Of a stretch of 32,000 nt of DNA, positions 6,810 to 32,000 are shown piece by piece (within the stretch, counting starts at the first letter, position 1; the number at the start of each line of letters is the position of its first letter). The stretch covers positions 690,001 to 722,000 of the forward strand of contig NC_014033.1 of the NCBI RefSeq assembly GCF_000025925.1, given 5' to 3'. This DNA is from Xylanibacter ruminicola 23 (GTDB taxonomy: Bacteria > Bacteroidota > Bacteroidia > Bacteroidales > Bacteroidaceae). A program made the translations under genes and the position numbers. The notes under the pieces were generated by a model that made no database searches, was not told the origin of the DNA, and saw only the letters and a program-made list of their open reading frames with translations.

Positions 6810-6834
6810 CAGCCGATTTCTTAAAAAGTAGTTA

Positions 6835-16578: not shown

Positions 16579-16591
16579 ACTCTAAAAAACA

Positions 16592-18625
16592 ATGAAAAGA
16601 TTTTTAACAATGATGACAATGGCATCTGTCTCAATGATGATGATGGCTCAGACTGAGCTGGGATCAGGCTTGAACGAGGCCGACTTTAACAAGAATGTGC
16701 GTCCGGGTGACGACTTCTATGAGTATGCCTGTGGTGGTTGGATGAAGAACAACCCACTGCCAGCAGCTTATTCGCGCTATGGTAGTTTCGACCGTTTGCA
16801 GGAAGACAACGACAAGCGCATTAACGGTATCCTGAAGGAACTGCAGAGCAACACTTATGCTAAGGGTACTATCGAGCAGAAACTGAGCGATCTTTATAAG
16901 TTGGCTATGGACTCTACACGTCGTAATAAGGAAGGTGTAGCTCCTGTTATGCCACTTATTAAGAAACTTGAGGCTGCCAAAACCGTTAAGCAGTTGCTGG
17001 CTATCCAGCTTGAGCTGGCTCCTTACGGCGAGCAGGAGTTCTTCTATGCTGGCTTCGGTGCCGACGAGAAGAACGCCACACAGAACATTCTGAGTATTTA
17101 TCAGAGTGGCCTGACACTCGGTCAGAAGGAGTACTACCTGGATAACGATAAGGCTACAGCCGGTATTCGCGAGGCTTTCAAGAAGCACGTGGTAAAAATG
17201 TTCCAGCTGTTTGGTTTCAGCAAGAGTGCTGCTACCAAGAAGATGCAGAACGTTATGAAGGTTGAGACTGCACTTGCTAAGGTTAGTAAGAGTCGTACCG
17301 AACTGCGCGATCCTGAGGCTAACTACAACAAGATGACTCTGAAGGAGTTCGAGGCTAAGTATCCTAACCTGCCTTTGGTTAAGGTGATGAACGCTAAGGG
17401 CATAGACACTAAGTTCCTGCAGGAGATGGTTGTTGGTCAGCCCGACTTCCTGGAAGGCGCTAATAGGGTAGTAGGTGCCCTGAAGCCTGCTGAGTATCGC
17501 GACGTGCTGGAGTGGAGCCTTGTTGAGGGTTCGGCTAACTATCTGAACGATGCTGCTGCAGCTGAGAGCTTTGATTTCTATGGTAAGATTAAGGCTGGTC
17601 GCAAGGAGAATCATCCTCTGTGGAAGCGTAGCACTGGTCAGGTAGAGCGCGTGATGGGTGAGGCTCTTGGTAAGATTTATGCCGAGAAGTACTTCCCCGA
17701 GGCTGCTAAGCAGCGTATGCTTACTCTGATTAAGAACCTGCAGATTGCTCTTGGTGAGCGTATTGCTGCCCAGGATTGGATGGACGACAGTACTAAGGTT
17801 AATGCCCTGCTGAAGTTGAATACTTTCTATGTAAAGGTGGGTTATCCTGATAAGTGGACCGACCTCTCTAAGCTGGAGATTGATCCTGCTAAATCTTTTT
17901 ACGATAACATGCAGGCTTGCGCTAAGTTCTGGAATGCTCACAACATTGAGCATACAGTAGGTAAGCCCGTGGATCGTGACGATTGGCACATGACACCACA
18001 GACTGTGAATGCTTACTATAATCCAACTACCAACGAGATTTGCTTCCCCGCAGGTATTCTGCAGTATCCCTTCTTTGATATGACTGCTGATGATGCCTTT
18101 AACTATGGTGCTATCGGTGTAGTAATCGGTCATGAGATGACTCACGGATTTGATGATCAGGGTCGTCAGTTTGATAAGGATGGAAATATGCACGACTGGT
18201 GGAAGGAAGCTGATGGAAAGAACTTTACAGAGCGTACTGATAAGTATGCCGATTTCTTCAGCGCTATCAAGGTACTTCCCGACCTGAATGGTAATGGCCG
18301 TCTGACACTGGGTGAGAACCTGGCCGACCACGGTGGTCTGCAGGTAGCATGGACTGCTTATAAGAACGCTACCAAGCGCAATCCTCTTGGCGAGAAGAAC
18401 GGTCTGACAGCCGATCAGCGTTTCTTCCACGCTTACGCAGGTGTATGGGCTGGTAACATTACTGAGGCTGAAATCCGCAACCGTACCAAGAGTGATCCTC
18501 ACTCACTGGGTCGTTGGCGTGTAAATGGCGCTCTGCCTCACATCGACGCTTGGTACGAGGCCTTTGGCGTGAAAGAGGGCGACAAGATGTTTATTCCTAA
18601 GCAGGAACGCCTCGAATTGTGGTAA
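16592..18625 (+). CDS. pepO: M13 family zinc metallopeptidase (PepO / endothelin-converting-enzyme-like)
   Basis: Signal peptide, the N-terminal M13 motif (DDFYEYACGGW), NAYY, the zinc site HEMTHGFD, ENLADHGG, and a C-terminal W. Confidence 0.92.
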   Translation: MKRFLTMMTMASVSMMMMAQTELGSGLNEADFNKNVRPGDDFYEYACGGWMKNNPLPAAYSRYGSFDRLQEDNDKRINGILKELQSNTYAKGTIEQKLSDLYKLAMDSTRRNKEGVAPVMPLIKKLEAAKTVKQLLAIQLELAPYGEQEFFYAGFGADEKNATQNILSIYQSGLTLGQKEYYLDNDKATAGIREAFKKHVVKMFQLFGFSKSAATKKMQNVMKVETALAKVSKSRTELRDPEANYNKMTLKEFEAKYPNLPLVKVMNAKGIDTKFLQEMVVGQPDFLEGANRVVGALKPAEYRDVLEWSLVEGSANYLNDAAAAESFDFYGKIKAGRKENHPLWKRSTGQVERVMGEALGKIYAEKYFPEAAKQRMLTLIKNLQIALGERIAAQDWMDDSTKVNALLKLNTFYVKVGYPDKWTDLSKLEIDPAKSFYDNMQACAKFWNAHNIEHTVGKPVDRDDWHMTPQTVNAYYNPTTNEICFPAGILQYPFFDMTADDAFNYGAIGVVIGHEMTHGFDDQGRQFDKDGNMHDWWKEADGKNFTERTDKYADFFSAIKVLPDLNGNGRLTLGENLADHGGLQVAWTAYKNATKRNPLGEKNGLTADQRFFHAYAGVWAGNITEAEIRNRTKSDPHSLGRWRVNGALPHIDAWYEAFGVKEGDKMFIPKQERLELW

Positions 18626-18650
18626 AATACATCAAAAAATATAGAATTTT

Positions 18651-18690
18651 GCCGTCGTAAATGTAAATTTACGGCGGTTTTTTTTGTTTG
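18651..18690 (+). terminator. rho-independent terminator after pepO
   Basis: Imperfect hairpin GCCGTCGTAAAT / ATTTACGGCGG followed by a T9 tract (18678-18685 and onward). Confidence 0.7.
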
Positions 18691-18713
18691 ATTCATTTTT
18701 TTATTTAACTTTG
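18683..18713 (+). promoter_or_regulatory. promoter candidate for the kinase/AAA+/FHA/PP2C operon (TTTG-N19-TAACTTTG)
   Basis: TTTG at 18683-18686 and TAACTTTG at 18706-18713 with a 19-nt spacer. The -7 box ends 30 nt upstream of the ATG at 18744. Confidence 0.55.
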
Positions 18714-18743
18714 CACCTAACTTAAGTTAAAATTCCAACAACG

Positions 18744-19667
18744 ATGAACGATATTACACAAAACCCAGATCGAATAAGCCGAGGTGCCGAGCCGCTTTAT
18801 CGTGAGCACTCTGCACAGCAACCTCAGTATCAGCAAGCCATGCAGGCCAATACGGCTAATGGTATCCAATGTCCTCATTGTGGCGCACTCAACGAAGCCG
18901 AAGCACTTTTCTGTGCCTCGTGCGGCGAGCCTATCGGTATGGCCACCTGTCCCTATTGTGGGGCAGCTGTCGATGCCGACGCCGACTTCTGCGAAAGTTA
19001 CCGTCACTATATCCGCAAGGACGTGTGCTCATTCTGTGGCGCCTATCTGCATGGCGCCGAGGCCTACTGCCCTGAGTGCGGTAATCCGGTGGGTGGTATC
19101 GATTGTCCTGTTTGTGGAACCCATAATGATTTCTCGTTCTGCAAACAGTGTGGTACAGCTCTTACCGAAGAGGCCCGTCTGATGAAGGAGAAGGTGATGG
19201 AGATGCCCGAGTACCAGCAGATGCAGAAACTGGCCGAAGAGTTGCAGAAGTTGGATTTGCAGATGCCTTATGTTACCGAGCAGGATAAGGAGCGCGACCG
19301 TAAGAGTCAGGAGCTGCGCCAGCGCGTACTCATGCTGTTGGCTCAGGATCGTGGTTTGGATCGTGTAGATGCCAACCTGGCCGACCATAAGGTGATGAGT
19401 AAAGACGAATACGACAAGAAGAAGCAGGAACGTATGGATATGCTGTCGCGACTGTTAGACCAGATGGCACAGCTGCCTCAGGAAAAGCCTGCTCAGGTGC
19501 GTAACTATGCTATGGCCTGCAAGCCTCAGGGTGTACGTCTGGCTTGGCAGTGCAACTTTAAGCACGCCCTCCACTCAAGTCCATGCGGATGTGCCAAGCC
19601 GCAGATGGGCGGAAAATGGATTATACTTGGTAAGGGAACAAGAAAAGAAATTAAAGACGATATCTAA
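18744..19667 (+). CDS. multi-zinc-ribbon / coiled-coil protein
   Basis: 307 aa. A Gln-rich N-terminus is followed by four consecutive CxxC(G)...CxxCG ribbons: CPHCG..CASCG; CPYCG..FCES (second half degenerate); CSFCG..CPECG; CPVCG..CKQCG. Then comes a ~130-aa highly charged helical segment and a C-terminal Cys cluster (CKPQ..WQC..SPCGC). Its stop overlaps the kinase start (TAATG). Confidence 0.8.
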   Translation: MNDITQNPDRISRGAEPLYREHSAQQPQYQQAMQANTANGIQCPHCGALNEAEALFCASCGEPIGMATCPYCGAAVDADADFCESYRHYIRKDVCSFCGAYLHGAEAYCPECGNPVGGIDCPVCGTHNDFSFCKQCGTALTEEARLMKEKVMEMPEYQQMQKLAEELQKLDLQMPYVTEQDKERDRKSQELRQRVLMLLAQDRGLDRVDANLADHKVMSKDEYDKKKQERMDMLSRLLDQMAQLPQEKPAQVRNYAMACKPQGVRLAWQCNFKHALHSSPCGCAKPQMGGKWIILGKGTRKEIKDDI

Positions 19668-22600
19668 TGAGTACGGATCGAACTCCACAAAATAAAGTAA
19701 ACGGAAACGAAGAGGTAAACGTAGATAAGACCGTACGTGCAACCAACTTTGATTTCCCACAGAATACTCCTTCAAAGGGTGAGGAGCCCGACAAACCGCT
19801 TGATGGCACCATCCGCATTGATATGCCGAAGATGGAAGCCCCCAAGCCAGCTGCTCCTAAACCACTTGACGGTACCGTGCGTGCACCTGGCCTTAATCAG
19901 CCTATTACACCACGACCTGCAGCGCCTCGTCCTGCAGCTCCACGTCCAGCAGCACCCAAAGCATTGGATGGAACTGTGCGTGCACCCGGCCTTAATCAGC
20001 CGATTACACCGCAATCTGCTGCGCCACGTCCAGCTGCTCCCAAGGCTTTGGATGGCACCGTTCGTGCCCCTGGTATCAACCAGCCCATTGCACCACAGCC
20101 CGTTACCCCACAGCCTGCAGCACCTAAACCTGCAGCACCATCAATGGGTAGTACCGTTCGTGGTGCACAGCCCCAGCCTCAAGCACAGGCTCAGGCTCAG
20201 GTTCGTCCCAACGTCAACATCTCGATTATCTCGTCGGCCAGTAATACCGACCGTGCCAAGAAACAGCGCCTGCAACGTAACCTGATTGATGAGAATATCT
20301 ACACGCTGAAAGGACAGGAGTATCGTCGTGTATCGGTACTGAGCGAGAATACAGGCGAGGCCGAGGTTTTTCTGGTTGAAAAAGACAACAAGGAATATGT
20401 ACTGAAAGTGTACTATCCCAATTTCGATGTGAACCGTAAGATATTGCAGACGGTTCTGAACTTCGACTTTGAGATGGTAGTAAAGGTGTACGACTTTGGT
20501 AAGACCTATGTGGATGGTAAGCACCGTTACTACGAGTTGATGGAGTACCTGCAGGGTGGCTCGATGGCCGAGTTCAATCTGGAAGGCGATATAAACAAGT
20601 TCCGTCGTATAGCTCTTCAGAGTGCTGCAGCCTTGGCTTACTGTCATCAGCTCAGAATTCTGCACAAGGATATCAAACCAGGCAACTTCTTCTTCCGTGA
20701 TAAGGACCATAACCAACTGGTTCTGGGCGACTTCGGTATTTCGAGTATGCTGGAGGAAGACGGTAAGTCGCATAAAACCACCCAGGCCCGTACCCCAATC
20801 TATGCGGCACCCGAAATGTATGCCGACGTAATTGATGGTGTGGTAGAGATTTCGCCAAAGGCCGACTACTACTCTTTGGGTATCAGCTTGATGACGCTGT
20901 GGTTAGGCGAGAGTCCGATGAGTACCAACGAGCGTGTGATGATGCGCCAGAAGAACGAGGGTCGCATACCACGCATGAACGAGTTGCCAGAGCGTATCAA
21001 GCTGCTGGTAATGGGTCTTACGGTGGTTAACCCCATCAACCGTTGGGGTTATGAGCAGGTAGAGCAGTGGTTCTTAGGCGAGAGCCCGAAGGTCGACCTG
21101 TCGTCACCATTCCTGAAGTACCAGAGTTTCGTTGTCGATCCAGAGCGTAACCTGGTGGCCGAGAACGTACAGGAGCTGGTGCCCATGCTGCTGGCCAACG
21201 AGCGCTTGGCTATCGGTTATCTGTATAACGGACGTATCACCCAGTGGTTGGACGCTTGTGGTAACAACAAACTGAGCACCATTGTTAAAGATATCATTTC
21301 CAAGAAATATCCTATCGATCAGCGTGCCGGTTTGATGGCATCGCTGTACGCTATGGACCCTGCCTATCCGTATAAGGATGTGCGTGGAACCAACTGCGAG
21401 GATATCCATGCGGTATGTATCTCGCTGCTGAGTAATCAGGACGAGTATGCCATATCGTTGGCTGCCCCGAACGATAATTTCTACCTTTATGTGGAAACCC
21501 ACACCAGCTGCGATGTTGATCGTTTGCGTTCTTACTTTAAGGAAGTAGACCATAACAATAAGGAGCAGGTACGTGTGGCTATCATGAAGATAGTGCTCGA
21601 GGTTGATCCTGAGATACCATTTATGGTAAAGCATCCATCGGCAGCAATTAACGATATTGTTAGCGCCTTTGGTCATGAAGATATAACCGAAGACGAGTGG
21701 CATAGTCTGACCGACGGACGCTTGCTGGCCTGGATGTACAGTCACGAGGACCAGATGGCGTGCGAGAGTCTGCGCATCATGACGCTGGATCAGCCTTACT
21801 CACGAAACTTGGCTTATAAGGTTCTTTATAACCTGAATCGCGAATCGGCCTATGATCTGGCCGGTGCCTTTACTCCTATACAAGTGGGCGAACTGCTCAA
21901 CGAGCGTTTGCATAAGGCGCAGAACCTTCCTGAGAAGGAGTTCGAGGAGGAGATGAAGGACTTTACTGAACTTGACGGTCGTTTTGCTTACTATGCCCAG
22001 CTGCACGGCTGGACCGAGATGTACAACGAGCATAAGCGCTGCTTCGACTTTAAGAGCGAGGAGAATACCGAACGTATGGGCGCTTATGATGTGAAGACGG
22101 CTGTTTACCGCTTCTGTCGTATCTTAGGCGTTACACCTACCTATATGATGGGCGACGGTATTGAGTACGCCGACGGCCGTAACCTGCAGGCAAAGAAGTT
22201 GCAGGTGTTCCGCAACGAAATCCGCAACGGCTCGATGGGGCAGTGGATGTCGGTGTTCTATCACGAAGACCCCAATGCCGACTTTACGGTAGAGTACTCG
22301 TACGAGCATGCCGTTGAGGACTGGTTGATGGCAATGGGAAAAATCGATCCTTCGCAGCGTTATTATAAGCGCTTTATCGATGCCCGCGACGAAACCCAGC
22401 GCCGTGTGGCCTTTGTAAAGGACAGTTGGAAGCGCGCCAAGACCAAGGAGAAGATCTGGCGTACAGCCTTCTACACCCTGAGCGGTATCTGGTTGGTATT
22501 CGTGCTGATATTCGGCGTTACCAATCCTGAGTATATCCTCACGCATACCTTTATCAGTATCGGTCTGCCTTTGGGTGGAATGACTGGTATGATTGTGGCC

Positions 22601-23119
22601 ACCCGCTCGTTCTTCAAGGGCTACGACTTTATGTTCTCGTTCCTGTGGGGACTGGTGGGCGCGTTTACGTGCTTTATACCTATTATTATATTAAAGTATA
22701 TTGGCGCATCGCACCCCATGCTGTTTAATATCGCCATTATCGTAATCACGCTTATCTACATGCTGGTTTGTCACCTCACAGATTTCCGTGGTAATGAGAA
22801 GGCCGACAGCCGACTGATATCCGAGGTGCTCGAAAACGATATGAAATCGAACTTGATAGAACCGCTGTACTACACCTTCAAGGCCCGTTCGTACAAGTTT
22901 AAGGGATCTAAGTTCGGTTTGCTTAACGATGTTACCGATCAGGTTCGCTCTATCACGGGCGAGAGTGTGCTTCACTACGTGCTGTGGAGCCTGCTGATGC
23001 TGGTATTCGTGGTATCGTTTGTGGTATTCAGCCCATCGATGCTGAACATTGCCAATCCTAACAGTCACATGAAGGAGGCCCCTAAAAGTATTATTAAGAA
23101 AATAGATAGAGACGCATAA
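19667..23119 (+). CDS. membrane-anchored Hanks-type Ser/Thr protein kinase with Pro-rich repeat N-terminus
   Basis: The kinase core spans roughly nt 20300-21110: beta3 Lys in YVLKVY, catalytic loop HKDIKPGN (H333), DFG (D355), and YAAPE. Before it is a ~200-aa disordered repeat region. After it is a ~450-aa region I cannot assign and five hydrophobic helices (nt 22454-23034). Confidence 0.88.
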   Translation: MSTDRTPQNKVNGNEEVNVDKTVRATNFDFPQNTPSKGEEPDKPLDGTIRIDMPKMEAPKPAAPKPLDGTVRAPGLNQPITPRPAAPRPAAPRPAAPKALDGTVRAPGLNQPITPQSAAPRPAAPKALDGTVRAPGINQPIAPQPVTPQPAAPKPAAPSMGSTVRGAQPQPQAQAQAQVRPNVNISIISSASNTDRAKKQRLQRNLIDENIYTLKGQEYRRVSVLSENTGEAEVFLVEKDNKEYVLKVYYPNFDVNRKILQTVLNFDFEMVVKVYDFGKTYVDGKHRYYELMEYLQGGSMAEFNLEGDINKFRRIALQSAAALAYCHQLRILHKDIKPGNFFFRDKDHNQLVLGDFGISSMLEEDGKSHKTTQARTPIYAAPEMYADVIDGVVEISPKADYYSLGISLMTLWLGESPMSTNERVMMRQKNEGRIPRMNELPERIKLLVMGLTVVNPINRWGYEQVEQWFLGESPKVDLSSPFLKYQSFVVDPERNLVAENVQELVPMLLANERLAIGYLYNGRITQWLDACGNNKLSTIVKDIISKKYPIDQRAGLMASLYAMDPAYPYKDVRGTNCEDIHAVCISLLSNQDEYAISLAAPNDNFYLYVETHTSCDVDRLRSYFKEVDHNNKEQVRVAIMKIVLEVDPEIPFMVKHPSAAINDIVSAFGHEDITEDEWHSLTDGRLLAWMYSHEDQMACESLRIMTLDQPYSRNLAYKVLYNLNRESAYDLAGAFTPIQVGELLNERLHKAQNLPEKEFEEEMKDFTELDGRFAYYAQLHGWTEMYNEHKRCFDFKSEENTERMGAYDVKTAVYRFCRILGVTPTYMMGDGIEYADGRNLQAKKLQVFRNEIRNGSMGQWMSVFYHEDPNADFTVEYSYEHAVEDWLMAMGKIDPSQRYYKRFIDARDETQRRVAFVKDSWKRAKTKEKIWRTAFYTLSGIWLVFVLIFGVTNPEYILTHTFISIGLPLGGMTGMIVATRSFFKGYDFMFSFLWGLVGAFTCFIPIIILKYIGASHPMLFNIAIIVITLIYMLVCHLTDFRGNEKADSRLISEVLENDMKSNLIEPLYYTFKARSYKFKGSKFGLLNDVTDQVRSITGESVLHYVLWSLLMLVFVVSFVVFSPSMLNIANPNSHMKEAPKSIIKKIDRDA
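19793..20140 (+). repeat. in-frame tandem protein repeat K[PA]LDGT[VI]R...Pro-rich (4 copies)
   Basis: Copies start at 19793 (KPLDGTIRIDMP..), 19859, 19958 and 20042 (K[PA]LDGTVRAPG[LI]NQPI[TA]P..PAAP). The units are 28-33 aa. They differ mostly at synonymous positions (e.g. cttgacggtacc / ttggatggaact / ttggatggcacc). Confidence 0.9.
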
Positions 23120-23125
23120 TATAAA

Positions 23126-26100
23126 ATGGTTTGTCAGAATTGTCATAAAGAAAACAGAAGCAAAGCAAAGTTCTGCAAGTGGTGCGGACAGCAGCTTGTT
23201 ACTACTGACTTGCTTGATAAGCTGGTTGGCCTCGATGAGGTGAAGAACCAGCTGAAAACCATTGTCGATACCTATACGTTTCTGCGCTCTCGCAAGGATA
23301 TCTCTAAAGCCCGTATCTCGCTCAATGCCATTGTGATTGGTGATACAGGTACGGGTAAGACGTCGCTGGCCGAGATTCTGCGCGATTACTTCTATCAGCA
23401 TAAGATCATCGAGAAACCCCAGCTGATGATGGTAGATGCCGTAGATTACCAGCGATTCGTCGACAAATGGGATGAAAATATCAAGAAAGCAAAGAATGGT
23501 ATATTGTTCTTCGACAATGTGCAGAAGCTTTTGCCCGATAAATACTCTAACCAGGTGAACCCGCTCGACAAGCTGTTTGTTGAGATGGACAAATGGGAGG
23601 ATAACCCCATTGTGATTATATCCGGACTCTCGAAGGGTTTGGAGGACTTCTTGGAGAGCAACCCAGCCGTAGCCAACCGTTTCAAGTATACCTTCCGTAT
23701 GACCACGCCAAACTTCCAGGAGCTTACCGAGATATGTAAGCTGAACCTGCAGTTGAAGTATGGCATACAGGATTTCTCGCCCGAAGCTGATAAACAGTTA
23801 TTGCGTTTCTTTAAATATCAGGTTAAGATTAAGGACGAGACCTTTGGTAACGGACACCTGGCCCATAAAACAGCCGAGAATATCTTTACCCAGTATATCA
23901 GTCGTGGCGCCAATGCCACAAGGGTAGAGTTGAGCGACATCACGGGTTATGTACCCGAGGAGCGCTCGGTTGAGGATATCCTGCGCGATCTGGACAGCTA
24001 CATTGGTATGGACGAGGTTAAGGCCGCCGTAAAAGAGATGGCCTACTCGGTACAGAACGCCATGCAGCGCGCCGAGCGTGGACTGGGCGAGCAGGAGAAA
24101 ATGTCGATGCACATTATTCTTACTGGTAACCCAGGTACAGGTAAAACCACCATTGCCCGTAAGTTGGGCGAAATCCTGGCAGCCATCGGCTATCTGGATA
24201 GCGGTCACGTAGTTGAGGTCGACCGTGCCAAGATGGTAAGTCAGTATCAGGGCGAAACACCTAAGGTGGTTGATGCCCTTTGCGATAAGGCCAAGGGCGG
24301 TATCCTGTTTGTGGATGAGGCCTACACCTTGGCTCCTGTGAGTGCGTCGGGCGATCGTGATGCCCAGGGCGCACAGGCTTTGGAGAAACTGATGAAACGT
24401 ATGGAGGACGATCGCGGACAGTTTATCGTGATTGCCGCTGGTTATCGCACGGAGATGGAGAACCTGTTCCGTGTGAACCCTGGTTTCCGCAGCCGTTTCA
24501 ATTATTTCCTCGATATCAAGGACTACTCGCCAGCCGAGCTGTTCGAGATTATGCAGGTATTTGCCAAGCAGAAAAAGTATATCTTCTCGCCGGATGCCCA
24601 GGTACTTACTCAGAAGATGATCAAGGAGATGTACGATTCGCGCGACAAGGACTTTGCCAACGGTCGTACCATGCGTACGCTCTTCGACCAGATTTGCAAG
24701 AAACAGGCACAGCGCCTGCAGGGGGCAAATATTTCTGCGATGAGCAACGAGGAGCTCATGACCATTGTACGCGACGATATCCCATACGATGCACCACAGA
24801 CCGTAAGCGTCGACGACTGTCTGAAGAAACTCGACGGTTTGGTTGGTCTCTCGGGTGTGAAGAAGGAGATTGCCAACCTGGCAGCCTTCCTGAACCTGCA
24901 GATTGCACGTGGCGAAACCAACACCTTCCAAGGCAAGCACTATGTGTTTACCGGTAACCCTGGTACGGGTAAAACTACCGTAGCCCGTATCATGGCCGAT
25001 ATCTTTAAGACGCTGGGCGTTGTGGCCCGCGGACAACTGGTTGAGGCCGACCGCTCTAAACTGGTGGCAGGCTTCTCGGGTCAGACAGCCATCAAGACCA
25101 ACCAGCTGGTTGATCAGGCTATGGGCGGTGTACTGTTTATCGACGAGGCTTACACGCTGAAGTCGAACGATGGCGACAGCTTTGGCGCTGAGGCTATCGA
25201 CACGCTGCTGAAACGTTTGGAAGATGATCGTGGTAAGTTTATCTGTATCGTGGCTGGTTATACCGACCAGATGCACGACTTTATCGACACCAACCCAGGC
25301 TTGAAGAGTCGCTTTACACAAACCATCCACTTCGACGACTATACGCCCGACGAGCTCACGGAGATCTTCCTGCATCTCGCATCCGGCAAGAACTTCACCG
25401 TCGACGAGGAGACCAAGGCGGCTATTCACCGTATGTTCGAGCAGCTCTATCTGCGCCGCGATAAGAACTTCGGTAATGCCCGTGAGGCACGCCGCATCTT
25501 CAACGAGGCTGTAGAGCGCCAGAGTCAGCGTCTGGTAAAGCAGATGACCAGTCCCGACTTCAAGGAGAGCGACATGTTTGCGCTCACCACCGCCGATCTT
25601 CCCCTGTCGCAGGGCGAGACCGCACGTCCGCTCGATGTGGTGCTCAACGAGCTCGAAGAGTTCATTGGTATGCGCTCAGTCAAGGATTCTATCCGTCGTC
25701 TGGCCGTACAGAGCATGTTCATGAAGCAGCGTGCCGCTATGGGTGCTGGCAGTGTTCAGCAGATGTCGATGAACTTTGTGCTTACGGGTAATCCGGGTAC
25801 AGGTAAGACATCTATTGCCCGCAAGATGGGTGAGATACTCCAGGCCATGGACATTCTGCCTACATCGCGTGTCATCGAGGCCAGTCGTGCTACGTTGGTT
25901 GGTAAGTACATGGGCGAAACACCTAAGATTGTGAACAGCATGTGCGATAAGGCCATGGGCGGTATCCTGTTCATCGACGAGGCTTATACCTTGAGCGATG
26001 GCGGCGACATGTACGGCAAGGAGGCTATCGACACGCTGATGAAACGTATGGAGGACGATCGTGGTAAGTTTGTGGTTATCGCTGCAGGCTATAAGGATAA

Positions 26101-26431
26101 GATGGAGGAGTTCATGATGATGAACGCCGGACTGGCCAGCCGATTCACCCACAAGTTGCACATCGACGACTACGATCCTGATGAGCTGCTGGCTATTTAC
26201 AAGCACATGGCCCAGAAGGAACAGTACCAGTTTACGCCTGAGGCTGAGCTTAAGGCACTCGACAAGATCTATAAGATGGTTCTTACCAAGACCGAGTCGT
26301 GGGGTAATGCCCGCGAGATGCGCAACCTGCTCGATTCTACTATCCAGCACCTGTCGGAGCGCGTATCAGCGCTGCCGGCCGATCAGGTTACAAAGGAAAC
26401 ATATCAGATTATACTACCAGAAGATATTTAA
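23126..26431 (+). CDS. zinc-ribbon protein with four tandem CbbX/SpoVK/EccA-class AAA+ ATPase modules
   Basis: N-terminal ribbon CQNC..(11)..CKWCG. Four modules each open with L[DE]x[LFY][VI]G[LM]xxVK. The Walker A motifs are GDTGTGKTS (aa 72), GNPGTGKTT (334), GNPGTGKTT (610) and GNPGTGKTS (888). The Walker B motifs are ILFFDNVQ (degenerate), ILFVDEAY, VLFIDEAY and ILFIDEAY. Each module also has an NPG[FL].SRF-type motif. Confidence 0.9.
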   Translation: MVCQNCHKENRSKAKFCKWCGQQLVTTDLLDKLVGLDEVKNQLKTIVDTYTFLRSRKDISKARISLNAIVIGDTGTGKTSLAEILRDYFYQHKIIEKPQLMMVDAVDYQRFVDKWDENIKKAKNGILFFDNVQKLLPDKYSNQVNPLDKLFVEMDKWEDNPIVIISGLSKGLEDFLESNPAVANRFKYTFRMTTPNFQELTEICKLNLQLKYGIQDFSPEADKQLLRFFKYQVKIKDETFGNGHLAHKTAENIFTQYISRGANATRVELSDITGYVPEERSVEDILRDLDSYIGMDEVKAAVKEMAYSVQNAMQRAERGLGEQEKMSMHIILTGNPGTGKTTIARKLGEILAAIGYLDSGHVVEVDRAKMVSQYQGETPKVVDALCDKAKGGILFVDEAYTLAPVSASGDRDAQGAQALEKLMKRMEDDRGQFIVIAAGYRTEMENLFRVNPGFRSRFNYFLDIKDYSPAELFEIMQVFAKQKKYIFSPDAQVLTQKMIKEMYDSRDKDFANGRTMRTLFDQICKKQAQRLQGANISAMSNEELMTIVRDDIPYDAPQTVSVDDCLKKLDGLVGLSGVKKEIANLAAFLNLQIARGETNTFQGKHYVFTGNPGTGKTTVARIMADIFKTLGVVARGQLVEADRSKLVAGFSGQTAIKTNQLVDQAMGGVLFIDEAYTLKSNDGDSFGAEAIDTLLKRLEDDRGKFICIVAGYTDQMHDFIDTNPGLKSRFTQTIHFDDYTPDELTEIFLHLASGKNFTVDEETKAAIHRMFEQLYLRRDKNFGNAREARRIFNEAVERQSQRLVKQMTSPDFKESDMFALTTADLPLSQGETARPLDVVLNELEEFIGMRSVKDSIRRLAVQSMFMKQRAAMGAGSVQQMSMNFVLTGNPGTGKTSIARKMGEILQAMDILPTSRVIEASRATLVGKYMGETPKIVNSMCDKAMGGILFIDEAYTLSDGGDMYGKEAIDTLMKRMEDDRGKFVVIAAGYKDKMEEFMMMNAGLASRFTHKLHIDDYDPDELLAIYKHMAQKEQYQFTPEAELKALDKIYKMVLTKTESWGNAREMRNLLDSTIQHLSERVSALPADQVTKETYQIILPEDI
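23213..26428 (+). repeat. four tandem internal AAA+ module duplications (module starts about 23213, 23990, 24830, 25651)
   Basis: The recurrent protein-level motif set has a period of about 260-280 aa. Modules 2-4 are clearly alike at the protein level, and module 1 is divergent. Confidence 0.85.
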
Positions 26432-26437
26432 CGAAAT

Positions 26438-27220
26438 ATGATTATTTGTCCAGCTTGTAAAGAAGAAATAGAAGACGATTCACATTACTGCGACCAATGT
26501 GGACAGCAGTTGCTGTTCTGTAAGCAGTGCGGTCATGTGGGGCTTGGACGTCGTTGTACACGTTGCGGCGGCATGATGGCTTTGCCTGCAGGTAGCATGG
26601 CAGCAGCCAATGCCGGAGCAAATCCCATGGGCGCTCCTATGGGCAACCCGATGGCTAATCCTATGGGCAACCCGATGGCTAATCCTATGGGTAACCCAAT
26701 GGGTAGTCCTGCTGGTAATCCTGGGGTAGGGGCTGCTGTGCGCCCTGGTGTAAACATCAGCGTTACACCCAGTGCCTCAGTATCGCGCGCCGCAAATGTA
26801 CCACCAGCACAACAACAGCAGCCTGTATCACCACGCACATCCAATGCGCAGAACATTGCAGCCAGCATATCGGTAGGTCCTGCTATCTCTATTGCTCAGG
26901 CAGGTGCCGGTCGTTCAAGCATGCCGATGATGACGTTGGTTAACGAAAGTCTCAATATACGTATCACAGCTATGAACGGTGCCATTATCGGTCGCCGTAA
27001 GGGTCCGTACGTTCAGTTCTTCGAGCAGAATTCGTACGTATCGGGTATTCATGCCCAGCTCAAGTACAAGTCAGGCGCAGGTTGGTTTGTTATCGATATG
27101 AACTCGTCAAACGGTACCAGAATTAATCAGGCTCCTATCCAGCCCGAGACCGAGAACCCGTTAAAGAATGGCGACGTGCTGTCGATTGCCAATGTCAACC
27201 TTCAAGTAGTAATTAGATAG
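26438..27220 (+). CDS. double zinc-ribbon / low-complexity / FHA domain protein
   Basis: N-terminus CPAC..CDQCG followed by CKQCG..CTRCGG. A ~130-aa Ala/Gly/Pro/Met/Asn low-complexity linker contains NPMG repeats. The C-terminal FHA signature is IIGRR....VSGIHAQL......FVIDMNSSNGTRIN......L.NGDVLSIANV. Confidence 0.88.
   Translation: MIICPACKEEIEDDSHYCDQCGQQLLFCKQCGHVGLGRRCTRCGGMMALPAGSMAAANAGANPMGAPMGNPMANPMGNPMANPMGNPMGSPAGNPGVGAAVRPGVNISVTPSASVSRAANVPPAQQQQPVSPRTSNAQNIAASISVGPAISIAQAGAGRSSMPMMTLVNESLNIRITAMNGAIIGRRKGPYVQFFEQNSYVSGIHAQLKYKSGAGWFVIDMNSSNGTRINQAPIQPETENPLKNGDVLSIANVNLQVVIR
26639..26710 (+). repeat. 24-nt tandem repeat (2 perfect copies + 1 diverged) encoding MGNPMANP
   Basis: atgggcaacccgatggctaatcct occurs at 26639-26662 and identically at 26663-26686. 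A third copy, atgggtaacccaatgggtagtcct, lies at 26687-26710. Confidence 0.9.
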
Positions 27221-27235
27221 TAATATTTAAAAACA

Positions 27236-27979
27236 ATGATAACAATACACATGACAGCAGCCAGCAAAGTAGGCTGCGTGCGTAGTCAGAACGAAGACAT
27301 GGTGCTGCTTGGCAGTCATTTCGTGAGGAATGATGCTTTTAGCACACGCGTAGACCTGACCAATAGCGACCGTTATATCATGGCTGTGGCCGATGGTATG
27401 GGTGGACATAATCGTGGTGATGTGGCCAGCAGTGATGCGCTGCATAACCTGGAGTTCTATTTTCACGATCTGCCCACAGGTCTTAGACCCGAATCCATCA
27501 AAGATAAGTTTGAGGATTGGTTAGACTCCATCAACAACATCATCGATTCAAAGGGTCGCTCCGACGAGCAGTATAAAGGTATGGGTACCACATTGGTAGG
27601 CTTGGCCTTCTACGAGGGCCAGTTCTATACGCTGAATTGTGGCGACAGTCGCTTGTATCGTTTCCGCGATGGCGATCTTACCCAGCTTACATCCGATCAC
27701 TCGCTCAGCAACATGCTCGGCTCTTCGCAGCATTCTAACGTTATCACTAACTGTATCGGTGGCGGTGCTACAAGCTCGTTTATCGATATTGTGAACATAA
27801 CCGATGATATCAAGGAGGGCGATGTTTACATGCTGTGCAGCGACGGACTCACTGATATGTTGCCCGATTCCATTATCTACACACTTCTTGCCGAAGGTTC
27901 TGACGCCAACACCCTCTGCGATGCCGCTGTGGCCGCTGGAGGCTTGGACAACGTGTCGTGTTGTGTGTTGCAATTCTAA
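27236..27979 (+). CDS. PP2C-family Ser/Thr protein phosphatase (Stp/PrpC-like)
   Basis: The PP2C motifs are present: VRSQNEDM, VADGMGGHNRGDVAS, GMGTTLVGL, NCGDSRLY, LCSDGLTD and GGLDNVSCCVL. Confidence 0.92.
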   Translation: MITIHMTAASKVGCVRSQNEDMVLLGSHFVRNDAFSTRVDLTNSDRYIMAVADGMGGHNRGDVASSDALHNLEFYFHDLPTGLRPESIKDKFEDWLDSINNIIDSKGRSDEQYKGMGTTLVGLAFYEGQFYTLNCGDSRLYRFRDGDLTQLTSDHSLSNMLGSSQHSNVITNCIGGGATSSFIDIVNITDDIKEGDVYMLCSDGLTDMLPDSIIYTLLAEGSDANTLCDAAVAAGGLDNVSCCVLQF

Positions 27980-28000
27980 AAAAGAGAGGAAAAATAAGAA

Positions 28001-28918
28001 ATGCCACTAAGATTACCAGACAGACTGCCCGCTATTGATATTCTGAAGAACGAGAATATCTTTGTGATGGATAACTCGCGGGCAACAACACAGGATATCC
28101 GTCCGCTGAAGATTGTGATTCTGAACCTGATGCCTCTGAAGATAACCACAGAGACCGATCTGGTTAGATTGCTTTCAAACACACCATTGCAGATGGAGAT
28201 TAACTTTATGAAGTTAAAGAGTCATACCCCTAAGAACACGCCGATAGAGCACATGATGATGTTCTATCGCGACTTTGAGTCGATGCGCAACGAGAAGTTT
28301 GATGGTATGATTATTACAGGTGCGCCTGTAGAGACGATGGACTTTGAAGATGTAACCTACTGGGACGAGATTACCGATATCTTTGCTTGGGCCAAAACCC
28401 ACGTCACCAGTACCTTATATATATGTTGGGCAGCTCAGGCTGGCCTTTATTACCATTATGGTGTGCCCAAGTACCCCTTGGAAAAGAAGATGTTCGGCAT
28501 CTTCCCACAAACACCCGTGGATACCAAACTGCCCATCTTCCGTGGGTTCGACGATGTGTTTATGATGCCTCACAGTCGTCATACCGAGATACATCGCGAG
28601 GATATTTTGGCCAACCCCGAGCTTACGTTGCTGGCCGAGTCACCCGAGAGTGGTGTCAGCATGGTGATGGCGCGTGGCGGTCGTGAGTTCTACATTACCG
28701 GTCACCTGGAGTATGCGCCAAACACACTCGACAATGAGTATAAGCGTGATCGTGGTATCCGCGACGATGTGGATATGCCAAAGAATTACTATCGCGATGA
28801 TAATCCTGACAACGCCCCAGTAGTAACCTGGCGTGCACATGCCAACCTGCTGTACAACAACTGGATTAACTACTACGTTTACCAGGAAACACCGTATAAT
28901 ATCGACGAAATTAAATAA
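28001..28918 (+). CDS. metA: homoserine O-acyltransferase MetA
   Basis: Collinear with E. coli MetA as I recall it: MPLRLPDRLPAIDILKNENIFVM, IRPLKIVILNLMP, FDGMIITGAP, HVTSTLYICWAAQAGLY, PHSRH, GHLEY, NWINYYVYQ. Confidence 0.93.
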   Translation: MPLRLPDRLPAIDILKNENIFVMDNSRATTQDIRPLKIVILNLMPLKITTETDLVRLLSNTPLQMEINFMKLKSHTPKNTPIEHMMMFYRDFESMRNEKFDGMIITGAPVETMDFEDVTYWDEITDIFAWAKTHVTSTLYICWAAQAGLYYHYGVPKYPLEKKMFGIFPQTPVDTKLPIFRGFDDVFMMPHSRHTEIHREDILANPELTLLAESPESGVSMVMARGGREFYITGHLEYAPNTLDNEYKRDRGIRDDVDMPKNYYRDDNPDNAPVVTWRAHANLLYNNWINYYVYQETPYNIDEIK

Positions 28919-28923
28919 GCTTA

Positions 28924-30708
28924 GTGACTGCATTAGAACTTTTAGCTCCAGCCAAGAATTTGGCTTGCGGCATAGCTGCCATCGATCATGGTGCCGATGC
29001 CGTTTATATCGGTGCGCCCAAGTTTGGCGCCCGTGCAGCCGTAGGCAACAGCATCGACGATATTCGCCAACTTTGTGATTATGCTCATCAGTTTGGTGCC
29101 AAAATCTATGTTACGCTCAACACCATCGTTTACGATCATGAGCTCGACGAGGCGCAGAAACTGATTGATCAGCTGGCCGGGATAGGCGTAGATGCCATTC
29201 TGGTGCAGGATATGGGCTTGCTGCAGTTTATGAACGGTAAGCCTTTCGAGATTCACGCCTCTACGCAGACCGATAACCGCTCAGCCGACAAGGTACGTTG
29301 GCTCAAGCAGGTAGGTTTTTCGCGTGCCGTTCTGGCGCGTGAGCTCTCGGCCGAGGAGATTGCCGAGATTCATCGCGAGGTGCCTGATATCGAACTCGAG
29401 GTGTTTGTGCATGGTGCCTTGTGCGTTAGCTATTCGGGCATCTGCTATGCCTCGCAGCATTGTTTCCAGCGTAGCGCCAACCGTGGTGAGTGCGCCCAGT
29501 TCTGTCGTATGCGTTTCTCGTTGGTCGATGCCGATGGCGAGGAGATAGAACACGAGCGTTACCTGCTCTCGCTCAAGGATATGAACCAGAGCGATAATCT
29601 GGATAAACTTATCGAGGCGGGTGCCGTATCGTTTAAGATCGAGGGCCGCCTCAAGGATGTTACTTACGTTAAGAACGTAACCGCTGCTTATAGCGAGCGC
29701 CTTAACGCCTATATCCGTAAGCATGCCGACCAGTATTGTCGTGCGTCAAAGGGCCGTTGCGAATACACGTTTACACCCAATCTCAATCGTACGTTTAACC
29801 GCGGCTACACCACTTACTTTATGAATGGTCGCCAGCCTAATATCGCCTCGTTCGATACACCAAAGGCGGTGGGCGAGTTTGTGGGTAAAGTTAAGGAGAT
29901 TCGTCACGATAGCTTTAACGTGGCCGGTACCGCCAGCTTTGCTAACGGCGACGGCTTGTGCTTCCTGAATCAGGATCGCCAGTTCGAAGGCTTCCGTGCC
30001 AACCGCGTGGTGGGTAATCGCATCTATCCTTTTAAGATGCCTGCTGGTTTGCGCCCGGGCATGTCGCTCTATCGTAACAACGATCAGGAGTTCGAGCGTA
30101 TTCTCTCTAAGCCCAGCGCTACCCGTAAGATTCCTGTAAGCATAGCCCTGCGTGCTGTGGCTGATGGCTTTGAGTTAAGTGCCGAAGGTGTAACGGTACA
30201 CTTTGCGGCCGAACATCAGATAGCCCAGAAGTCGCCTCGTGAGAATCTGGTTCGTCAGCTCTCAAAGCTGGGCGATACCATCTATGAGTGCCAGGAGGTT
30301 AACGTACCCGACGATTTTAATTATTTCATCCCCAATAGTCAGCTCACCGACATGCGCCGCCAACTGGTCGAGGCCCTTGTACAGCCCCAGCGCCAGGTAA
30401 AGCAGGCCAAGGTGGGTGCTAATCCAGGTGTAGACAAGCTCAGTTATCAGAATAACATCTCCAACCGCCAGTCGGCTGCCTTCTATGGTACCGATAAACT
30501 CTCGGCCTATGAGCTGAAAGGTGGCGACGGACCTATCATGCAGTGCCGTCATTGCATCCGTTATTCGTTGGGCTACTGCGTAAAGCGCGGCGGCAAACGC
30601 CCCACGTGGCACGAACCGCTTTCTCTCGTATTAGGCGATGGACGCCGATTCCGTCTTGAGTTTGATTGTCAACATTGTCAGATGAACGTCTATGCGTCGA
30701 CTCGTTAG
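28924..30708 (+). CDS. U32-family protein (peptidase U32 / RlhA-YdcP-like Fe-S enzyme)
   Basis: GTG start. The U32 N-terminus is ELLAPAKN...AIDHGADAVYIG..KFGAR. The conserved Cys cluster is CVSYSGICYASQHCFQRSANRGECAQFCR, and FKIEGR is present. The C-terminal extension ends in CRHC..C...CQHC. Confidence 0.88.
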   Translation: MTALELLAPAKNLACGIAAIDHGADAVYIGAPKFGARAAVGNSIDDIRQLCDYAHQFGAKIYVTLNTIVYDHELDEAQKLIDQLAGIGVDAILVQDMGLLQFMNGKPFEIHASTQTDNRSADKVRWLKQVGFSRAVLARELSAEEIAEIHREVPDIELEVFVHGALCVSYSGICYASQHCFQRSANRGECAQFCRMRFSLVDADGEEIEHERYLLSLKDMNQSDNLDKLIEAGAVSFKIEGRLKDVTYVKNVTAAYSERLNAYIRKHADQYCRASKGRCEYTFTPNLNRTFNRGYTTYFMNGRQPNIASFDTPKAVGEFVGKVKEIRHDSFNVAGTASFANGDGLCFLNQDRQFEGFRANRVVGNRIYPFKMPAGLRPGMSLYRNNDQEFERILSKPSATRKIPVSIALRAVADGFELSAEGVTVHFAAEHQIAQKSPRENLVRQLSKLGDTIYECQEVNVPDDFNYFIPNSQLTDMRRQLVEALVQPQRQVKQAKVGANPGVDKLSYQNNISNRQSAAFYGTDKLSAYELKGGDGPIMQCRHCIRYSLGYCVKRGGKRPTWHEPLSLVLGDGRRFRLEFDCQHCQMNVYASTR

Positions 30709-31624
30709 TCTCCTGTTCGTCTCCATCCTGTTATGTGGCTGCTATAACCGTGGCCCCATCACGCCCGATGCCTGGGATCTGACCGAGAAACAGCTCGACT
30801 CCATCTCGTTCTACACCACCCATCATTACACCCAGAACTACAATTTTGTGGTAACGGGCGATTCGCTGGTGGTGGTTAAGCAGCAGCCCGAGGATATGTC
30901 GGTGCCCGATGTGGTAACGTTCGAGCTGCAGTCGATGGGCGAGGAGATGAAGAAGGATTCTATCACTCTGCGCCGCAACGAGCATGTGGTGGTGGCCGAT
31001 ATCAAGACGGTACCCACCGATACCATCGATTCTGTGTGGGTAAAGGTGGCGCGCGATCAGCTTACTTTTGGATGGGTACACGAAAACGAGCTTCTCTCAA
31101 AGGTGTCGCCCGATGACCCAATCAGTCAGTTCATCGATTACTTCTCCGATAAGCACCTGCTGGTGTTTATGGCCTTCTGCGTGCTTACGGGTGCCGCTTA
31201 TGGTTTGCGCCGCCTGATGCGTAAGGGTTGTAAGATTGTGCATTTCAATGATATCGCCTCGTTCTATCCCACAGCGCTCTGTCTGCTCATAGCCTCGTCG
31301 GCTGTGCTGTATAGTAGCATCCAGCTGTTTGCCCCCGAAACCTGGCGACATTTCTATTATCATCCCTCGCTCAATCCGTTTGCGCTGCCGTTCTGGCTGG
31401 GCGTATTCATCTCGTCGGTATGGGCGCTCATCATCTGGTCGTTGGCAACCGTCGATGATGTGTACCACCGTTTGCCCCTGGGCGAGGCCATCATGTATCT
31501 GGTAGGATTGGCAGCCGTGTGTGCTGTTATCTATGTGGTGTTCAGCATCACTACCTTGTATTATGTAGGCTATCCGTTGCTGATAGCATACTTCTATTTC
31601 GCCATCAAACGTCTGAAGCTTTAA
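30692..31624 (+). CDS. hypothetical membrane lipoprotein
   Basis: Lipobox-like signal MRRLVSLLFVSILLCGC, a ~140-aa soluble N-domain, then at least four hydrophobic helices. It overlaps the U32 gene by 17 nt. Confidence 0.65.
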   Translation: MRRLVSLLFVSILLCGCYNRGPITPDAWDLTEKQLDSISFYTTHHYTQNYNFVVTGDSLVVVKQQPEDMSVPDVVTFELQSMGEEMKKDSITLRRNEHVVVADIKTVPTDTIDSVWVKVARDQLTFGWVHENELLSKVSPDDPISQFIDYFSDKHLLVFMAFCVLTGAAYGLRRLMRKGCKIVHFNDIASFYPTALCLLIASSAVLYSSIQLFAPETWRHFYYHPSLNPFALPFWLGVFISSVWALIIWSLATVDDVYHRLPLGEAIMYLVGLAAVCAVIYVVFSITTLYYVGYPLLIAYFYFAIKRLKL

Positions 31625-32000
31625 ACCAGCATCAGGTCGCTCATAATCATATCGCTTACAAAGAGTCCTTCTTTTGTGAGCGATATTTTTTGGTCGTTGA
31701 GTTTCAGCAATCCCGCCTCCAGATGGCGCTGGGCGTTTTTCAGACAGTAGGCACGCTGCTGGTCGGTCAGCGTGCTCAGGTCTAATCCCTCGCAGGTGCG
31801 CAGGGCCACGGTCACGGCATCGTTATAGCGTGTGTCCTCGTCCAGCGTCTCTGCCTCAAAGCATCGCTCGCCTTGCTCCATGGCGGTGATGTACTGCTGG
31901 ATATCGGCCACGTTCCAGCTGCGTGTCTGGATGTCGAACGAGTGGGCAGCGGCGCCGATACCGATATACGGTATGCCCTTCCAGTAGCTGCTGTTATGGC
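31621..32000 (-). CDS. hemW: radical SAM heme chaperone HemW / HemN-like, C-terminal part (5' end lies outside the window)
   Basis: The reading frame stays open to the window edge. Its translation, HNSSYWKGIPYIGIGAAAHSFD...WNVADIQQYI...LTKEGLFVSDMIMSDL, matches the HemN_C/HemW C-terminal pattern. The GTG at 31911 in the ORF track is internal. Confidence 0.8.
   Translation of the reverse strand, partial: HNSSYWKGIPYIGIGAAAHSFDIQTRSWNVADIQQYITAMEQGERCFEAETLDEDTRYNDAVTVALRTCEGLDLSTLTDQQRAYCLKNAQRHLEAGLLKLNDQKISLTKEGLFVSDMIMSDLMLV

Follow-up and report, generated by a model that had tools for sequence, protein, structure and literature searches.

A conserved five-gene cassette that joins a membrane threonine kinase, an FHA protein and a PP2C phosphatase to a tandem AAA+ ATPase

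Here, we analysed a 32-kb stretch of the Xylanibacter ruminicola 23 genome (contig NC_014033.1, positions 690,001 to 722,000; hereinafter the window, to which positions refer unless another locus is named) and, within it, five genes on the + strand that encode a zinc-ribbon protein (g1), a Hanks-type Ser/Thr kinase (g2), a large AAA+ protein (g3), a zinc ribbon-FHA protein (g4) and a PP2C phosphatase (g5). Comparison with related and distant genomes indicates that the five genes form one self-contained signalling-plus-motor cassette that is inherited both vertically and horizontally. Triads of kinase, FHA protein and PP2C phosphatase are known as switches for secretion and cell-wall machines; we found no description of such a triad being dedicated to an AAA+ protein remodeller, and the five-gene set itself was found neither in the full-text literature outside subscription-only sources nor as a specific system in PADLOC or NCBIfam. 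The general scheme we favour, with a confidence slightly short of even, is that threonine phosphorylation at the membrane controls a multi-module protein-remodelling ATPase.

Co-conservation of the five genes

The unity of the cassette is apparent from gene order and orthology. In a scan with one genome for each GTDB species, 330 relatives of the zinc ribbon-module 1 region of g3 came up, the best 80 of them all from Prevotellaceae, and in all of these 80 species genomes g1-g5 occur in the same order at the same chromosomal site (here and below, statements on Prevotellaceae gene order hold wherever the contig reaches that far). Within this sample, protein identity is 36-92% in the FHA protein, the least conserved of the five, 48-99% in g1, 50-97% in the kinase, 54-98% in the PP2C and 73-99% in the AAA+ protein, whose conservation is the highest of all and comparable to that of ABC-F and metA. 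Given that the flanks are conserved in the Prevotellaceae too, distant lineages were examined to test whether the gene set is independent of its context.

Nine distant loci, with GC contents from 34 to 73%, were collected, five (L085-L089) from diverse AAA+ representatives and four (L090-L093) from the kinase profile, and the two ways of entry gave the same answer. L085 and L086 come from low-GC Bacteroidota with genes of the type IX secretion system kind; L087, L088 and L089 have 61%, 44% and 73% GC, respectively; L090 belongs to the Ignavibacteriaceae, L091 to a deltaproteobacterial metagenome-assembled genome, L092 to Phocaeicola barnesiae and L093 to the gammaproteobacterium Panacagrimonas. 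The kinase, the zinc ribbon-tandem AAA+ protein, the FHA protein and the PP2C are encoded together in nine of nine, and a hidden Markov model (HMM) of g1 finds its ortholog in eight, the contig of L091 beginning at the kinase gene. Orthology by blastp extends over the full length of g1, the kinase (post-kinase region included), the FHA protein and the PP2C, at 24-39% identity. The flanks of these loci are unrelated and the gene order varies, with the kinase first, the kinase last or the AAA+ gene last. In the loci examined, metA and the U32 and M13 peptidase genes never lie beside the cassette outside the Prevotellaceae, so that the conserved functional unit is exactly g1-g5. The preliminary description of this DNA, made from the sequence alone, had proposed to test whether the gene set keeps together independently of its flanks, and in every distant locus examined it does. 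Its statement that no secretion, cell-wall, nuclease or toxin gene accompanies the five genes also holds: none travels with the cassette, which leaves the AAA+ protein as the only enzyme besides the writer kinase and the eraser phosphatase.

Besides being fixed and highly conserved in the dominant rumen Prevotellaceae, the cassette occurs in Bacteroidaceae of the gut (Phocaeicola and Bacteroides spp.), and it is therefore probably of physiological importance to abundant gut anaerobes.

Several loci hold further, lineage-specific genes inside or beside the cassette. These include, in L087, an HSP70-like protein of 830 aa (positions 1-2394 of that locus) and a 295-aa zinc ribbon-like membrane protein (15576-16463); in L088, an extra 1117-aa AAA+ protein with AAA and AAA_lid_6 matches (15514-18867); and, in L091, ankyrin-repeat proteins (5258-7035). 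The L087 kinase itself ends in ankyrin repeats.

The five proteins and their genes

Domains were assigned by searches of Pfam, NCBIfam and PDB sequence profiles, and the preliminary assignments for all five products were borne out. The kinase (g2; 19667-23119, 1150 aa) consists of four parts, the first of which (19667-20281) is an N-terminal tail, disordered and containing several [DG]-[KG]-T-[VI]-R motifs, a candidate platform for multi-site phosphothreonine (pThr) docking. In this genome, the motifs read DKTVR, DGTIR, DGTVR (three times) and GSTVR; elsewhere, they take such forms as DKTVR[LI]D and EKTTRLND (L085), GTRRLE (L087), EKTARPD (L088) or TVRID and TTRVD (L089), and in many lineages [VI]ISSG or IPSGF comes after the motif. 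Within the T-x-R core, Thr and Arg are invariant. Such repeats are present in the kinase tails of the nine distant loci and of the kinase homologues inspected, being visible in every lineage, and across the 56 kinases for which density was computed there are 2.6 T-x-R per 100 aa in the tails versus 0.2 elsewhere, an approximately 13-fold enrichment. Among Prevotellaceae, the number of copies ranges from 0 to 9 and tail length varies even among close relatives, which suggests repeat expansion and contraction; in the window, an in-frame tandem DNA repeat with a unit of 84 nt (19932-20094) underlies the repeats. The FHA protein probably docks on the pThr of these tail motifs.

The tail is followed by the kinase domain (20282-21073), which provides the only Pfam match of g2 (Pkinase, aa 240-466, 1.9e-29, 103 bits versus a cutoff of 31.7) and belongs to the Hanks type. 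Its catalytic motifs are intact (VLK247, HKD333-335, N340, DFG355, APE381), and the Gly-rich loop is reduced to TGEAEV. The third part, aa 470-930 (21074-22456), is predicted to be all-alpha, with an AlphaFold2 pLDDT of 92.9 and a pTM of 0.81. Structures were predicted for single domains of g2 and compared by Foldseek with the PDB and, for the alpha-domain only, with BFVD; no structural neighbour of this domain was found in either (PDB best E 0.96, TM-score at most 0.2; BFVD best E 0.52), nor a sequence-profile match in Pfam or the PDB. The first ~180-230 aa of the domain are kept in nearly all of 120 kinase homologues. The C-terminal part (22457-23119) is, by hydropathy and AlphaFold2 (pLDDT 88.2), a membrane bundle: five hydrophobic helices span aa 930-1130, helices 4 and 5 being joined by a cytoplasmic loop of ~55 aa. 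The bundle, too, has no structural relative by Foldseek in the PDB (best E 0.19). Four hydrophobic C-terminal segments (4-5 predicted transmembrane helices) are found in the kinases of all five distant loci tested, L085-L089. The kinase brings, as far as the models go, two predicted domains without structural relatives plus a new short linear motif.

The AAA+ protein (g3; 23126-26431, 1101 aa) begins with a zinc ribbon, CxxC-x3-NR-x2-A-x-FC-K-x-CG (23126-23200), that is invariant in two family alignments, and the domain searches also give four AAA and three AAA_lid_6 matches. The four modules announced in the preliminary description are thus present; alignment of their motifs, however, shows module 1 (23201-23980) to be degenerate, so that the better count would be one degenerate, regulatory module plus three active ones. 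Module 1 keeps its Walker A (GDTGTGKT), whereas its Walker B is FFDN rather than hhhDE and hence lacks the catalytic Glu; the pore-loop Gly is missing, and GNGH stands in place of the sensor-2 GNAR/ANGR of modules 2-4. It probably binds ATP without hydrolysing it. Given that GGILF[IV]DN is the family consensus at this Walker B, the degeneracy is ancestral.

Modules 2-4 (23981-26431), with all catalytic motifs intact and an AAA_lid_6 each, are 33-45% identical to each other and to CbbX, SpoVK and EccA proteins, and fall into that clade of classical AAA+ ATPases (AAA core plus AAA_lid_6); the best PDB relatives of g3 are EccA1 (1.2e-51) and CbbX (7.7e-49). The NCBIfam scores for CbbX, SpoVK and EccA exceed their cutoffs only because four modules are summed, and no Rubisco, sporulation or type VII secretion system genes, such as a functional CbbX, SpoVK or EccA would call for, occur in the window or in the related loci.

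The size of g3, called giant in the preliminary description, turns out to be ordinary among its relatives. An exhaustive HMMER search of 1.84 billion representative sequences returned 23,627 relatives, 10,948 of them at E <1e-30; the best 150 of the 23,627 are all long (549-2233 aa), nearly all with several matched modules. Forty-six of these 150 representatives share the N-terminal zinc ribbon (CxxC-x3-NR-x2-A-x-[FY]C-K-x-CG) and have between 2 and 7 Walker A motifs. By its sequence features, g3 is one member of a large family of zinc ribbon plus tandem SpoVK-type AAA+ proteins, and size alone is not novel. The hits of one homologue search with full-length g3 were all at least 99% identical and from rumen Prevotella, and so are uninformative on distribution. 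Two ideas about g3 were discarded: that module number reflects ring stoichiometry, with 1+3 proteins forming dimers and 1+6 proteins staying monomeric, because 1+2, 1+3, 1+4, 1+5 and 1+6 all occur, and that T-A-R-P-L-D in the linker between modules 3 and 4 is a docking site, because it is not conserved in the family.

Short fragments returned by the profile of zinc ribbon plus module 1 are split AAA genes in Prevotellaceae-like metagenome contigs. The gene is divided into two open reading frames in L083 (10001-13317 of that locus; 497 and 608 aa) and L084 (2827-6147; 398 and 703 aa), which could reflect a frameshift, an assembly error or pseudogenisation; the FHA protein of L083 has no Pfam zinc-ribbon match. 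On plasmids, tblastn with g3 met no close relative but only members of another family, SpoVK-like ATPases with two modules. Such proteins, joined to right-handed beta-helix repeats, are common on Streptomyces linear plasmids, and related tandem AAA genes occur on plasmids of Bacillus, Ligilactobacillus and Bradyrhizobium.

The three remaining proteins are smaller. The first, g1 (18744-19667, 307 aa), combines four zinc ribbons (two DZR; Pfam DZR 5e-17) with a coiled coil, has a helical region of ~110 aa, and ends with a motif, W-x-C-N-x5-H-x2-P-x2-C-x2-P-x2-GG (aa 268-290), that is invariant in the family alignment. At residue 86 (TAC, 18999-19001), this strain has Tyr (CESY) at a near-invariant zinc-ribbon Cys (CESC), which is Cys in a 94%-identical relative and in almost all other family members; one of the four ribbons may be impaired in this strain. 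A match of g1 to the NCBIfam model Npun_F5560 is weak, occurs in only 3 of 22 members and is uninformative, and a T-x-R-P at the N-terminus, seen in some Prevotellaceae, was dropped as a candidate site, being missing from distant orthologs.

The FHA protein (g4; 26438-27220, 260 aa) consists of a double zinc ribbon (aa 1-47; Pfam DZR 1.1e-6), a low-complexity linker of NPMG repeats, underlain by a 24-nt in-frame tandem repeat (26635-26710), and an FHA domain (aa 166-260; Pfam FHA 3.2e-14, 53.5 bits versus a cutoff of 20.7). The pThr-binding residues are intact (GR185-186, SGIH202-205, NG225-226), and in the distant orthologs GR and S-x-x-H are kept in all five tested and N-G in four, L087 being the one without it. 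The phosphatase (g5; 27236-27979, 247 aa) has intact PPM metal-binding motifs (DGMGG53, GDSR136, SDGL202, LDN237) and matches Pfam PP2C_2 above cutoff (8.3e-14); with 160 bits against the cutoff of 230 of the NCBIfam Stp1/IreP model (NF033484), it is best classed as a PPM member and not as an Stp1 equivalog. Three of the five cassette proteins (g1, g3 and g4) begin with DZR-type ribbons, and the same zinc-ribbon 'prefix' is matched by the NCBIfam models of a zinc ribbon-phosphatase (PRK14559) and of the 4Cys_prefix_kin kinase.

The terminator of the upstream M13 peptidase gene (18651-18690, + strand; 12-bp stem, 4-nt loop and T-run, the hairpin proper at 18651-18678) is the upstream boundary of the unit. 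Its T-run overlaps a Bacteroidetes-type promoter on the + strand, TTTG-N19-TAACTTTG (18683-18713), recognised by pattern match; the pattern occurs 7 times in the window versus 0.48 expected, and from 10897 to 32000 neither strand has another match. The genes g1 and g2 overlap in TAATG (19665-19669), and the later gaps are 6, 6 and 15 nt. In all these respects, the five co-directional genes past a terminator and a promoter are as first described.

The label of a five-gene operon needs qualification. The start of metA follows the g5 stop by 21 nt (27980-28000), and between that stop (27979) and metA (28001) no consensus promoter, terminator or riboswitch was found; no terminator or consensus promoter parts the PP2C gene from metA, the U32 peptidase gene and the membrane-protein gene (28001-31686, + strand), which lie outside the conserved cassette. 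The next strong terminator on the + strand is located only at 31649-31686, after these three genes, so that 'five-gene operon' fits the conserved cassette, g1-g5, but need not fit the transcript. Transcription in this genome may reach ~31686 and take in the three additional genes; the sequence is compatible with a single g1-g5 transcript and also suggests read-through to 31686. The PP2C, metA, U32 and membrane-protein genes lie next to each other in all 80 Prevotellaceae loci but in none of the distant ones, and transcription of metA, which serves methionine biosynthesis, may be coupled to that of the cassette. GC content is unremarkable.

Two other elements of the window deserve mention. A FopS small RNA (Rfam RF04319, 79 bits versus a gathering score of 56) lies at 97-164 on the + strand, directly past a match to the Bacteroidetes promoter consensus at 60-90. 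On the - strand, 8591-10807 encodes a 738-aa membrane protein that consists of a dCache/PDC sensor, a SpoIIE-type PP2C and HATPase_c_2 (an RsbW-like anti-sigma kinase), a second Ser/Thr phospho-signalling protein in the window that is unrelated to the cassette.

A possible mechanism and its alternatives

FHA domains bind pThr and, in the PknF/Rv1747/PstP system of M. tuberculosis, proteins are gathered into membrane clusters by pThr-FHA contacts at multiple sites. In the scheme we favour, the kinase would reside in the inner membrane, where its cytoplasmic alpha-domain and/or its membrane bundle would sense a cue; once activated, it would phosphorylate the Thr in the T-x-R repeats of its tail, acting in trans among clustered copies. 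The FHA protein would then dock multivalently on the pThr sites of the tail, and the motor would be brought to this platform through its zinc ribbon, of which g1 and the FHA protein have related versions. Here, the three active CbbX/SpoVK-type modules would thread and remodel a client, with module 1 serving as a nucleotide-binding scaffold, and the PP2C would erase the mark and reset the system. The most economical client, given that no sixth gene is conserved, would be a component of the platform itself (g1 or the kinase tail), so that remodelling resets or propagates the signal; an external client is equally possible. We infer both the client and the role of the AAA+ protein as the output rather than as an assembly or reset factor. 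CbbX remodels by threading the tail of RbcL, and the nearness of the AAA modules to the substrate-threading remodellers CbbX and EccA1 counts in favour of the scheme, as do the co-conservation of the five genes, the enrichment of T-x-R in the kinase tails, the intact catalytic and binding residues and the high conservation of the AAA+ protein.

Several observations weigh against it. The residue at pT+3 of the tail motif is variable, and many FHA domains select at +3; the conserved Arg at +2 could instead be a specificity determinant for the kinase or the phosphatase. T-x-R is conserved neither in the AAA+ linkers nor in distant g1 proteins, so that direct phosphorylation of those partners is unsupported; that zinc ribbons recruit the proteins together is a guess made from their common architecture. 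Neither a protease nor another downstream enzyme is linked to the cassette in the loci examined. Finally, the numbers of active modules, from 2 to 6, fit no single ring stoichiometry.

A more specific version can be put forward only tentatively, as a joint claim that we think has a modest chance of being right in all its parts: the cassettes would represent a widespread and hitherto unrecognised class of 'phospho-threonine segregases', in which the kinase writes a multi-site pThr code on its tail, the zinc ribbon-FHA protein reads it and the AAA+ protein, a single-chain motor with several modules, extracts or unfolds the marked client, as a protease-free bacterial counterpart of ubiquitin/Cdc48 or of phosphoarginine/ClpC; the alpha-domain and the membrane bundle of the kinase would then be new folds. 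If confirmed, a dedicated link from a kinase-FHA-PP2C triad to an AAA+ remodeller would give bacterial Ser/Thr signalling a new class of output and provide a first functional context for the very large family of tandem SpoVK/CbbX-type ATPases (with E <1e-30, about 11,000 representative clusters), with a conserved phospho-motif and two domains without structural relatives defined along the way. As there are only five genes and the parts can be assayed individually, the hypothesis is directly testable.

Of the alternatives, the most serious, if still rather unlikely in our estimate, accepts the same biochemistry and assigns it to immunity or conflict, that is, to anti-phage, anti-plasmid or threat-sensing functions: the kinase would detect infection or envelope attack, and the AAA+ motor or the membrane bundle would bring about growth arrest or neutralise invader proteins. 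TerY-P is one example of threat sensing with a kinase and a phosphatase. The distribution of the cassette, patchy across phyla and with shuffled gene order, agrees with such a role, as does the rapid evolution of the T-x-R repeats, with their 0-9 copies among Prevotellaceae, and the Esr pathway is a precedent for threat sensing by kinase, phosphatase and FHA protein (PMC13622651). Moreover, five of the nine distant loci have mobile genetic element or defence neighbours within 10 kb: TraG/TrwB coupling proteins, SSB and TrbC at L087, a TraG/DUF87-like gene at L091, a type ISP restriction enzyme and a SIR2-nSTAND protein at L090, HipA/helix-turn-helix genes at L092, and a Card1-like nuclease with TraR-like genes at L093. 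The initial impression that this is not a mobile defence island stands for the Prevotellaceae; in these five loci, conjugation, restriction-modification, SIR2-STAND or toxin-antitoxin genes are nearby.

Against immunity, housekeeping genes flank the cassette at its single, fixed chromosomal site in all 80 Prevotellaceae genomes, the AAA+ protein equals ABC-F and metA in conservation, the GC content is not anomalous, and the cassette encodes no nuclease, toxin or NADase effector. PADLOC v2 yields generic domain matches only (the kinase to mad6/PD-T4-6, the AAA+ protein to TRIP13/IetA, the PP2C to PDC-M21C at 6e-4, the FHA protein to none) and places the genes in no catalogued anti-phage system; the alpha-domain of the kinase is without a match on 72,556 plasmids or 50,697 phages. 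The same observations speak for a housekeeping, stress or quality-control role, and the two readings compete.

Unlikely by our reckoning is a second alternative, in which the AAA+ protein would merely help, as a chaperone, to assemble or reset the system, and the true output would be the zinc ribbon-FHA protein and/or g1, acting after phosphorylation or release on distant targets such as nucleic acids or transcription, as has been proposed for the zinc-finger-FHA outputs of Esr. The zinc ribbon-FHA architecture is indeed conserved, the outputs of Esr are FHA proteins, often with zinc fingers (PMC13622651), DZR 'prefix' domains recur on kinases and phosphatases (PRK14559, 4Cys_prefix_kin), and g1, besides its four zinc ribbons, ends in a conserved Cys/His motif. 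However, the FHA protein is the least conserved of the five (36-92%) and the AAA+ protein the most; neither g4 nor g1 has a recognisable DNA-binding domain; and the FHA proteins of L086, L090, L091 and L093 are without a Pfam zinc-ribbon match.

Membrane remodelling in the manner of ESCRT and Vps4, with g1 as a membrane-located coiled-coil polymer and the AAA+ protein as its disassembly ATPase under control of the kinase, phosphatase and FHA protein, appears quite improbable. Archaeal Vps4/ESCRT-III loci do carry membrane Ser/Thr kinases, phosphatases and a dedicated FHA family (PMC10936438), databases annotate g3 as 'SpoVK/Ycf46/Vps4 family', the helical region of g1 spans ~110 aa and the kinase is membrane-bound. 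But there is no MIT domain, g1 has no match to Snf7, PspA or CdvA, and the AAA modules match CbbX/EccA/SpoVK with AAA_lid_6 rather than Vps4; the Pfam and PDB-profile searches gave no MIT, Snf7 or PspA match for either g3 or g1. That the five genes are neighbours by chance, or share transcription only, can be practically dismissed: here, the cassette is possibly co-transcribed with the unrelated metA and U32 genes, but synteny already contradicts this view, the families co-occurring in every distant locus with unrelated flanks.

Relation to known systems

No profile library or paper that we searched places the cluster in an already characterised system, so that the preliminary reading survives its own test on this point, although several systems resemble it in part. 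Close in logic are PpkA/Fha1/PppA of type VI secretion (T6SS) and PknB/FhaA/PstP of mycobacteria, in which, as in the cassette, the genes for an FHA reader and a PP2C eraser accompany that of a membrane Hanks kinase; both gate an ATP-driven machine via pThr docking, and the cassette would work alike. It differs in that no T6SS or cell-wall genes accompany it (the 32-kb window holds no T6SS genes) and in that the partner is a tandem CbbX-type AAA+ protein. Furthermore, its FHA protein has a zinc ribbon-linker-FHA layout and is not TagH/Fha1 (TIGR03354, 33 bits versus a cutoff of 120), and its kinase has no periplasmic sensor and possesses a novel, predicted cytoplasmic alpha-domain.

TerY-P and the vWA-kinase-FHA-PP2C operons (DRA0331-0334 in Deinococcus) are likewise compact mobile cassettes with a kinase, a PP2C and sometimes an FHA protein and zinc ribbons, for which a conflict role has been proposed or shown. 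In place of their defining vWA domain, the present cassette has the tandem AAA+ protein and the zinc ribbon-coiled-coil g1, and no vWA match was found in the five proteins or in the Pfam-annotated cassette genes of the distant loci. The Esr/PFNA cluster of Actinobacteria (PMC13622651) comprises a MoxR AAA+ protein, vWA, transglutaminase, kinase, phosphatase and an FHA output, and resembles the cassette in pairing an AAA+ protein with a kinase and a phosphatase, in its often zinc-fingered FHA protein and in signalling by Thr phosphorylation. Its AAA+ protein, however, is a single-module MoxR that works with vWA and a surface beta-propeller sensor, whereas the cassette, whose proteins give no MoxR or vWA matches, has no sensor filament or transglutaminase and an ATPase from the CbbX/SpoVK clade with 3-7 modules. 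SpoVK and CbbX are not mentioned by Kaur et al. (2020).

The archaeal Vps4/ESCRT-III loci (PMC10936438) also combine a classical-clade AAA+ protein with a membrane kinase, a phosphatase and an FHA protein; by contrast, the cassette lacks ESCRT-III, CdvA and the MIT domain, and its AAA+ protein belongs to a different subfamily. At the level of the motor, CbbX (the red-type Rubisco activase), SpoVK and EccA resemble modules 2-4 of g3 as substrate-tail-threading remodellers built from AAA and AAA_lid_6, but these are single-module homo-hexamers, whereas g3 is a tandem fusion with an N-terminal zinc ribbon and a degenerate first module. In McsB/ClpC/YwlE, the phosphoarginine mark is read directly by the N-domain of ClpC, which is coupled to ClpP proteolysis. 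The likeness to this system is a functional analogy only, that of a writer kinase, an eraser phosphatase and an AAA+ unfoldase acting on phospho-marked proteins, whereas in the cassette pThr would be read by a separate FHA adaptor, no protease is linked and the writers are not homologous. Finally, FraH of Anabaena, studied in the reorganisation of heterocyst membranes, consists of a double zinc ribbon, a Pro-rich linker and an FHA domain, the same domain order as in g4.

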